Origin: Escherichia coli
Lineage (GTDB): Bacteria > Pseudomonadota > Gammaproteobacteria > Enterobacterales > Enterobacteriaceae
Assembly: GCF_003334305.1 (NCBI RefSeq)
Contig: NZ_QOWS01000005.1
Strand: one strand, 5' to 3'
DNA length: 64,000 bases
A program made the position numbers and the translations under genes. The notes beneath the pieces were generated by a model. It saw nothing but the letters and a program-made list of their open reading frames with translations, ran no database searches and was not told where the DNA came from. Every line of letters begins with the position of its first letter. Positions within the stretch are counted from its first letter, which is position 1. Positions 38,278-39,534 of the stretch are shown here, in pieces.

Positions 38278-39534
38278 ATGGGATCTGATGCGAAAAACTT
38301 GATGAGCGACGGGAATGTGCAAATTGTTAAGACCGGCGAGGTCATTGGCGCGACGCAACTTACTGAAGGCGAGTTGATTGTTGAAGCTGGCGGAAGAGCC
38401 GAAAATACCGTGGTCACGGGGGCTGGCTGGTTGAAAGTGGCAACCGGTGGGATCGCCAAATGCACACAGTACGGTAACAATGGCACGCTATCGGTCAGCG
38501 ACGGTGCCATTGCCACAGATATTGTTCAGTCCGAGGGAGGCGCAATTAGTCTCTCTACGCTCGCTACGGTTAATGGCCGCCATCCCGAAGGTGAATTCAG
38601 CGTTGATCAGGGTTATGCCTGCGGTTTGTTGCTGGAAAATGGCGGTAACCTGCGTGTACTGGAAGGACATCGCGCGGAAAAAATCATTCTCGATCAAGAG
38701 GGCGGCCTGTTGGTTAATGGGACAACCTCAGCGGTCGTGGTAGATGAAGGTGGTGAATTGTTGGTGTATCCAGGTGGGGAAGCCAGCAATTGTGAGATTA
38801 ATCAGGGCGGCGTTTTTATGCTGGCCGGGAAAGCCAGTGATACGTTGCTTGCTGGTGGCACCATGAATAATCTCGGTGGTGAAGACTCTGACACTATTGT
38901 TGAGAATGGATCCATTTATCGTCTGGGGACGGATGGCCTTCAGCTCTACAGTTCCGGTAAGACGCAAAACCTGTCCGTGAATGTGGGTGGTCGGGCTGAA
39001 GTGCATGCCGGTACGCTGGAAAATGCGGTAATACAAGGTGGAACAGTGATCCTGTTGTCACCCACCAGCGCGGACGAAAATTTTGTCGTAGAGGAAGATC
39101 GCGCACCGGTTGAACTGACCGGGAGTGTTGCATTACTGGACGGCGCTTCAATGATTATTGGCTATGGCGCAGATCTGCAACAATCAACGATTACTGTACA
39201 GCAGGGCGGTGTGTTGATTCTCGACGGCAGTACGGTAAAAGGTGACGGTGTCACTTTTATTGTTGGTAACATCAATCTGAATGGCGGAAAACTGTGGCTG
39301 ATCACTGGTGCGGCAACGCATGTGCAACTGAAAGTGAAACGCCTGCGCGGAGAGGGAGCGATTTGCCTGCAAACCAGTGCGAAAGAAATCTCACCTGACT
39401 TCATCAATGTGAAAGGGGAAGTTACCGGGGATATACACGTTGAGATAACAGATGCCAGTCGGCAAACTCTGTGCAACGCTCTGAAATTACAGCCAGACGA
39501 AGACGGGATTGGCGCAACGCTCCAGCCTGCGTAA
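38278..39534 (+). CDS. ydhQ: Autotransporter-adhesin-related passenger-like protein
   Basis: 418 aa, Gly/Thr/Asn-rich and repetitive like an AIDA-type beta-helix; no C-terminal beta-barrel region. Confidence 0.75.
   Translation: MGSDAKNLMSDGNVQIVKTGEVIGATQLTEGELIVEAGGRAENTVVTGAGWLKVATGGIAKCTQYGNNGTLSVSDGAIATDIVQSEGGAISLSTLATVNGRHPEGEFSVDQGYACGLLLENGGNLRVLEGHRAEKIILDQEGGLLVNGTTSAVVVDEGGELLVYPGGEASNCEINQGGVFMLAGKASDTLLAGGTMNNLGGEDSDTIVENGSIYRLGTDGLQLYSSGKTQNLSVNVGGRAEVHAGTLENAVIQGGTVILLSPTSADENFVVEEDRAPVELTGSVALLDGASMIIGYGADLQQSTITVQQGGVLILDGSTVKGDGVTFIVGNINLNGGKLWLITGAATHVQLKVKRLRGEGAICLQTSAKEISPDFINVKGEVTGDIHVEITDASRQTLCNALKLQPDEDGIGATLQPA

Follow-up and report, generated by a model that had tools for sequence, protein, structure and literature searches.

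How does a protein built like the secreted passenger of an autotransporter fare when it has none of the parts that would take it out of the cell? The question is raised by ydhQ, a gene in a 64,000-nucleotide stretch of Escherichia coli DNA (NCBI RefSeq assembly GCF_003334305.1, contig NZ_QOWS01000005.1; the whole stretch is referred to as the window), for which an earlier note made from the sequence alone had proposed either a decayed autotransporter remnant or a protein exported by another route. The coding sequence delimited in that note (38278..39534, + strand, with an ATG start and 418 amino acids (aa) plus stop) is confirmed by the list of open reading frames (ORFs). It is named 'ydhQ: AIDA repeat-containing protein' in RefSeq, and the product matches the NCBIfam equivalog NF007409 (PRK09945) with 941.5 bits (cut-off 830), residues 1-418 corresponding to model positions 1-418; this entry, 'AIDA repeat-containing protein YdhQ', describes the same protein and differs in nothing. 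ydhQ is an ordinary annotated gene that reveals no new kind of system, and the gene, its repeat content and its missing signal peptide are already on record. Added here are the exact truncation point of YdhQ, its Escherichia-specific position between mdtK and valV, clear purifying selection that argues against the label 'remnant', and a caution about papers that use YdhQ as an autotransporter anchor or adhesin and do not address the missing barrel. The reading towards which we lean, with somewhat more confidence than doubt, is that YdhQ is maintained by selection as a non-enzymatic beta-helix inside the cell, where it would work by binding.

YdhQ is homologous to AIDA/Ag43-type passengers and is passenger-like in nature, as was first proposed from its composition and repeats. 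The protein contains 15.6% Gly, 10.5% Leu, 9.1% Val, 8.1% Ala, 7.9% Thr and 5.5% Asn, such that its description as Gly/Thr/Asn/Val-rich is overstated for Asn. There are 14 GG dipeptides, and the repeated GG-x-L/V motif of the earlier note is real, with nine occurrences of GGx[LIVMF] versus 2.8 +/- 1.7 expected from 2000 shuffles. An AIDA (strand-loop-strand) repeat region, the Ag43/TibA-like part of the beta-helix, occupies 38302..38910 (+ strand; aa 9-211). Within the protein Pfam AIDA (PF16168) matches aa 31-69, 99-159 and 147-193 (all E<=6e-4, with additional weaker matches), the best of these being residues 99-159 (E=1.7e-22), and the heptosylation-target repeat TIGR04415 scores 42.8 bits (cut-off 30); tandem strand-loop-strand repeats of ~19 residues are thus present by both models. 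The NCBIfam Ag43 and AIDA-I passenger models also both match, with Ag43 model positions 249-500 corresponding to aa 25-276. Closer to the C-terminus a pertactin-like segment (39262..39486, + strand; aa 329-403) resembles the first part of an autochaperone domain, matching PF03212 model positions 1-78 of 121 (E=4.2e-5); compared with pertactin-type autochaperones, YdhQ lacks the closing hairpin, or cap, which its relatives have as a 'G-Y-Y-L...W-L' region, and everything beyond it.

The predicted fold agrees with these assignments. An AlphaFold2 model of YdhQ built from an alignment of 19 sequences is all-beta and of high confidence (predicted local distance difference test, pLDDT, 90.3; predicted template modelling score, pTM, 0.86), and its top Foldseek matches are Ag43 and TibA (TibA 55-350), down to E=2e-11. 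The closest solved structures by sequence are likewise the Ag43 passengers 7ko9, 7koh, 7kob and 4kh3, and TibA 4q1q. Together the AIDA repeats, the model and the Foldseek matches indicate a beta-helical passenger domain. Antigen 43 (Flu/Ag43; 4kh3, 7ko9, 7koh, 7kob) is the best match in both sequence and fold, each being a right-handed beta-helix that includes the unit 'GT/GRxxxGxFSVxxGxAxxLLLENGGxLxVLxGHxA', but identity is only about 20-35%, and unlike YdhQ, Ag43 has a signal peptide, a passenger that is longer by ~250 residues at its N-terminal side, the whole of the autochaperone, and a 12-stranded barrel. One of the two most conserved stretches of YdhQ (residues 98-135, with 35 of 38 positions invariant) is an Ag43-type hairpin unit. 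AIDA-I and TibA (PF16168, TIGR04415, 4q1q) share the same ~19-residue strand-loop-strand repeats, but differ from YdhQ, which has neither leader nor barrel; both are secreted proteins that are glycosylated by dedicated heptosyltransferases.

The other is an acidic loop, SPTSADENFVVEEDRAPVEL, encoded at 39058..39117 (+ strand; aa 261-280). It is longer in YdhQ than in the autotransporter relatives, forming an insertion in the alignment of YdhQ with these proteins (alignment A1), and 17 of its 20 positions are invariant across nine orthologues versus 58% overall, a weak indication of constraint that is uncorrected for the number of windows compared; pLDDT falls below 50 at residues 269-273. Cysteine, considered as a possible mark of adaptation to the cytoplasm, makes up 1.2% of YdhQ versus 0.53% of autotransporter segments, but the distributions overlap. 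PADLOC reports no defence-system match for YdhQ, and two PHROG families of unknown function match its repeats only.

YdhQ does not have the hydrophobic N-terminus of a Sec-exported protein. The best 10-residue Kyte-Doolittle window in its first 60 aa is 1.19, versus 1.9-2.9 in leader-bearing relatives (five full-length proteins), and SignalP 6 predicts no signal peptide for YdhQ (PMC13101318). Three in-frame stop codons lie within the 12 codons 5' of the ATG (38239..38274, + strand) and rule out an N-terminal extension; the in-frame translation before the gene reads '...AFTLR*Q*RHTDAAKE*IMGSD', the ATG is the first start after a stop, and no hydrophobic leader is encoded in any of three translated frames of the 275-bp upstream spacer. 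An upstream frameshift or an extension carrying a leader was considered and is ruled out by these stops and by the lack of a leader-like frame; two tblastn alignments starting at 38188 and 38191 merely read through stop codons. The hydropathy and the upstream stops bear out the earlier observation that no classical signal peptide is evident.

Neither is there a translocator. Pfam and NCBIfam show no beta-barrel (PF03797 or TIGR01414) in YdhQ, and the search for a relic barrel that had been suggested as a check, in which 110 full-length autotransporter relatives were compared by tblastn with the whole 64-kb window, gave 646 alignments inside ydhQ and a best E value of 0.016 outside it, which is not significant. 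There is no room for a barrel after ydhQ, because the stop codon is followed by a bidirectional terminator (hairpin at 39541-39566) and then by the end of the convergent gene mdtK at 39575, just as expected from the description of a gene ending at a terminator hairpin with no barrel. The outcome that was to have overturned that description, a leader plus barrel revealed by correcting the start or frame, was looked for and not found, and a lipobox, other export motif or adjacent transport genes were not found for YdhQ either. YcgV and other cryptic autotransporters of E. coli K-12 belong to the same Ag43-like family, with which YdhQ has been grouped (PMC13101318, PMC9110714), but YcgV (955 aa) retains its barrel and YdhQ does not (PMC13101318). 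Lacking both a Sec leader and a beta-barrel, YdhQ is unable to secrete itself, and with leader, barrel and complete autochaperone each absent it is by definition not an autotransporter.

Comparison with full-length AIDA/Ag43-family proteins, also suggested in the earlier note, places the truncation point. When 1.84 billion representatives are searched exhaustively with HMMER, one YdhQ cluster is recovered, all other matches being large autotransporters at ~30% identity; the best of these is a 1534-aa Ag43-family protein with 38% identity over the repeats. Several relatives that align over nearly the whole of YdhQ continue for ~340-380 residues beyond its projected end, this remainder carrying the TIGR01414 barrel together with the rest of the autochaperone and the linker, and have from 70 to several hundred residues before its projected start. 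In alignment A1 the last residues of YdhQ, LKLQPDEDGIGATLQPA, pair with the 'LQVVQTGGGDAAFTL' strand of full-length autotransporters, and profile positions 290-397 correspond to pertactin (1dab) 404-502, IgA1 protease 723-921 and Hap 747-911. The published limits of the autochaperone are D444-L556 in pertactin, D865-L977 in IgA1 protease, D830-L964 in Hap and D606-L720 in IcsA (PMC5767081), so that the pertactin alignment stops at 502 within 444-556 and the domain in YdhQ is incomplete. By these alignments, YdhQ comprises the last ~400 residues of a passenger, starting inside the repeat array and ending about halfway through the autochaperone domain (~pertactin 502). The match to internal and late passenger regions indicates an origin by truncation of a longer gene, and YdhQ is clearly derived from an autotransporter passenger shortened at both ends; to this extent, that of passenger descent with loss of both ends, the 'decayed remnant' reading is half right.

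The gene is widely retained. Of 5426 complete E. coli genomes, 5420 contain the locus (coverage of at least 80% for a 2-kb query around ydhQ), and the 418-aa YdhQ cluster has 8778 member sequences; Shigella likewise has the 418-aa form. In E. coli AR_0013 (H30, NZ_CP032204.1) 58% of the 2-kb query is found in one piece, and the product is named 'AIDA repeat-containing protein' with no gene symbol. The ydhQ of this strain, whose genome is among the six of 5426 that fall short of full coverage, is probably disrupted. Twelve orthologues were compared, from E. albertii, E. marmotae, E. ruysiae, E. whittamii and further Escherichia lineages (at least six species or lineages) and from one distant taxon, and all share the gene order ydhR - tRNA-Val x2 - ydhQ - mdtK - ribC - cfa. 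None of the 12 reading frames is interrupted, and all begin and end at the same codons, encoding 418 aa, or 419 aa in the distant taxon. The latter (L002, Logan SRR31578456) encodes a protein with 72% identity at a synonymous divergence (dS) of ~3, in the same tRNA-Val/mdtK context, and possibly comes from an unsampled Escherichia-like lineage that was not returned by the species-level genome scan.

The ratio of non-synonymous to synonymous divergence (dN/dS) between these orthologues and the window is 0.06-0.125 for ydhQ at dS 0.4-3 (Fisher p<1e-46), and each quarter of the gene taken alone also gives a low value (0.04-0.27). In the flanking genes it is 0.014-0.043 for mdtK, ribC and cfa, and 0.05-0.17 for ydhR. 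ydhQ is therefore under moderate purifying selection throughout Escherichia, and it has been kept as a 418-aa protein, because a neutral 1.26-kb frame would not survive such divergence. None of the features of a decaying pseudogene (a disrupted frame, dN/dS near 1, patchy spread) is seen, and the term 'decayed' used in the earlier note is unsupported given the 12 intact frames, the dN/dS values and the retention in E. coli. In this ydhQ, with its clean conserved 418-aa frame across the genus, is unlike the interrupted autotransporter pseudogenes ydbA, yaiT and ycgH of K-12, which are strain-variable and disrupted. Selection has kept YdhQ intact, and YdhQ therefore has a use. The dS of ydhQ departs from that of its neighbours in both directions (1.07 versus 0.64 in E. 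albertii; 0.42 versus 0.66 in E. ruysiae), and its third-position GC is 50.6% versus 57.6% in mdtK; both hint at weak codon bias, recombination across the locus, or both.

ydhQ, its promoter region and its terminator form a ~1.5-kb segment (38047..39574), bounded by the valVW promoter on one side and the mdtK end on the other, that is specific to Escherichia. The distance from the mdtK stop to the first tRNA-Val is 1604 bp in the window versus 151 bp in Salmonella enterica (L012) and 153 bp in Enterobacter (L013), and YdhQ-like sequence was not found in the mdtK-valV interval of either. The sequence that the window shares with these outgroups breaks off ~75 bp 5' of the tRNA, and both outgroups have their own, different mdtK terminator. 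No full-length autotransporter is present at the mdtK-valV position in these two sampled outgroups. From the comparison of these loci, the ydhQ fragment was probably captured, or truncated, before Escherichia diversified, and would have arisen in the Escherichia ancestor. A scan of a genome collection with two strict peptide patterns returned five Escherichia loci and missed species otherwise found to carry ydhQ; it supports 'Escherichia only', but says nothing on absence in E. fergusonii or elsewhere.

Published data bear on where YdhQ is found and on what it might do. YdhQ fusions without an added signal peptide are cytoplasmic and fluorescent (PMC13101318, 2026), from which it follows that YdhQ folds in the cytoplasm, an unusual behaviour for a passenger. 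The protein is detected in whole-cell proteomes (PMC6561319), is among 17 unannotated candidate RNA-binding proteins that were captured (PMC11066096) and copurified with elongation factor Tu (EF-Tu; PMC2672614), and the ydhQ transcript is listed in the CsrA network (PMC5389547). The level of YdhQ changes under vanillin or isobutanol stress. We propose that stand-alone YdhQ would have arisen from the C-terminal ~400 residues of a self-associating passenger of the AIDA-I/Ag43/TibA type and would be translated from its own ribosome-binding site. Folding would take place in the cytoplasm and give a right-handed parallel beta-helix, with half an autochaperone unit closing it, and YdhQ would not leave that compartment; a flank of the helix, possibly including the conserved acidic loop, may serve as a binding surface for other macromolecules. 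For the native protein we infer action inside the cell, and action by binding, to be the most likely in each case, and a role as a surface adhesin is not likely.

Several observations weigh against this proposal. The constraint on ydhQ is moderate, its dN/dS being 3-7 times above that of the flanking housekeeping genes, and positively selected sites, as are typical of surface proteins, have been reported in it (PMC9110714). Fusions with an added signal peptide are reported to be surface displayed (PMC13101318), YdhQ is listed among COG3468 proteins in extracellular-vesicle proteomes (PMC10458587), and the paper on the positively selected sites states, second-hand, that ydhQ is needed for early adhesion (PMC9110714). 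Neither a function inside the cell nor a partner or phenotype is on record for YdhQ, and delta-ydhQ serves as a neutral control strain and the gene as an integration site (PMC6962156; bioRxiv 2023.03.28.534373). The EF-Tu copurification and the RNA-binding capture are weak evidence, as both are high-throughput results prone to false positives with abundant partners.

A more specific form of the intracellular reading is that YdhQ is an exaptation, in which an adhesive secreted module was captured without its export parts and, retained over the entire history of Escherichia as an intracellular beta-helix, took on a new role, possibly one associated with RNA or translation, the link to which is drawn because the RNA-binding capture and the EF-Tu copurification hint at one. 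We regard this as a tentative possibility only; if true, YdhQ would be a rare case in which the cytoplasm is where an autotransporter passenger both folds and works.

It is rather unlikely, though more probable than the other competing explanations, that YdhQ leaves the cell non-classically (through lysis, in vesicles or by an unknown exporter) and once outside contributes to adhesion or to the matrix, for instance through pairing with the Ag43-type beta-helices of neighbouring cells. The repeats of the Ag43/TibA self-association type have been kept, and as YdhQ folds without secretion machinery a released protein could be active. The early-adhesion statement and the positively selected sites (PMC9110714) and the vesicle listing (PMC10458587) also fit such a role, but the adhesion statement is second-hand, and cytoplasmic contaminants are common in vesicle proteomes. 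Against it stand the lack of leader, barrel, adjacent transport genes, lipobox or other export motif, and the leaderless fusions, which are seen only in the cytoplasm (PMC13101318). The suggestion of export by another route thus finds no sign in the sequence and is unlikely given the location of these fusions (PMC13101318).

That YdhQ is instead a functionless autotransporter remnant, persisting because it is harmless or by linkage to mdtK and valVW, is improbable. Its truncation at both ends, the lack of a known phenotype with deletion strains used as neutral controls, and the more relaxed evolution of ydhQ relative to its neighbours would all be expected of a remnant, but a 1257-bp frame intact in 12 lineages at a synonymous divergence of 0.4-3 per site would not, and neither would low dN/dS in every quarter, near-universal retention in E. 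coli and the 418-aa form in Shigella; the explanation is largely refuted.

Still less probable is that the segment acts as DNA or RNA and not as protein, for example as the mdtK terminator or as insulation of the valVW promoter. Each of the two convergent genes does use the hairpin, whose stem is preserved through compensatory changes, and a FlhDC peak from systematic evolution of ligands by exponential enrichment (SELEX) lies in the ydhQ-valV spacer (PMC9962212), but such a role fails to explain the deficit of non-synonymous changes over all 418 codons and would at most be additional, and in Salmonella and Enterobacter a spacer of 150 bp with a different terminator suffices. Finally, that YdhQ is a true autotransporter, as some papers treat it (PMC13101318, PMC9110714), with a leader and barrel missed through a wrong start, frameshift or assembly error, is hardly credible and is refuted by the upstream in-frame stops, by a spacer that contains nothing but tRNAs and the valVW promoter, by a terminator directly downstream with mdtK converging on it, by an architecture that is the same across 5420 E. 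coli genomes and at 11 further loci, and by the lack of barrel-like sequence in the 64-kb window.

These results have a practical side, as the literature continues to call ydhQ an 'autotransporter adhesin', counts it among biofilm or virulence genes, and has employed it as an 'anchor' for surface display. Because YdhQ has neither leader nor barrel, caution is warranted with the adhesin and anchor labels and with the 2026 surface-display claim. The role of a conserved passenger beta-helix that folds in the cytoplasm is a small and tractable puzzle, and YdhQ could offer a natural system in which to study how a passenger folds when it is not secreted vectorially.

The gene order around ydhQ is ydhS(-), ydhR(-), two tRNA-Val(GAC)(-), ydhQ(+), mdtK(-), ribC(+) and cfa(-). 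The tRNA-Val(GAC) genes valV and valW, identified by ARAGORN at 37813-37889 and 37894-37970 (- strand), are divergent from ydhQ, and the 275-bp spacer 5' of ydhQ holds the divergent valVW promoter; mdtK, coding for a multidrug and toxic compound extrusion (MATE) efflux pump (39575..40948, - strand; from the ORF list, RefSeq and homologues), is convergent with it. A Shine-Dalgarno sequence AAGGA at 38266..38270 (+ strand), 7 nt 5' of the ATG, is invariant across the Escherichia species and the distant orthologue L002. A consensus promoter scan reports none for ydhQ; a candidate sigma-70 promoter, TGGATA-16 nt-TACACT (38207..38234, + strand; 8 of 12 matches), scores below the threshold of the scanner and is put forward from conservation only, as the block is conserved in an alignment of the region (A3). 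The bidirectional intrinsic terminator at 39541..39566 is common to ydhQ and mdtK and is terminator-like on both strands; its hairpin (-24.3 kcal/mol, z=-4.87) begins within 7 nt of the ydhQ stop codon (39532-39534). The stem is kept by paired substitutions in E. albertii, Escherichia sp. E4742 and L002, with GGCGCAACC...GGTTGCGCC versus GGCGCAATC...GATTGCGCC as stem pairs and compensatory changes from CC/GG to TC/GA (alignment A4). A 62-aa ORF (37815-38003, + strand) runs antisense over both tRNA-Val genes and has an internal peptide repeat that mirrors the tRNA duplication; it is almost certainly not a gene.

The valV-valW pair marks a variable spot on both sides (window 37813-37970, - strand; L012:7514-13362; L013:7528-10758), with ydhQ on the upstream side of the pair in Escherichia. 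In Salmonella an SPI-2-like type III secretion block (Bac_export_1/2/3, FliP, SepQ, SsaO/SsaP and an ATPase) begins ~160 bp past valW, and in Enterobacter the genes past valW include HSP20, GlgS and type VI remnants (SciN, gp25-like). Within Escherichia, ydhT adjoins ydhR without ydhS in E. albertii (L001:2251-3432), and in E. marmotae (L003:1-2995) pykF, a YnhH-like gene and DUF2767 adjoin ydhS without ydhT/ydhU-type genes, which implies that ydhS and the ydhY-T operon have been deleted in particular lineages among the Escherichia species. On the other side of mdtK, the riboflavin synthase gene ribC (window 41163-41804; also L001 and L003-L006) codes for products of 213, 208 or 205 aa, apparently through variation at the C-terminus.

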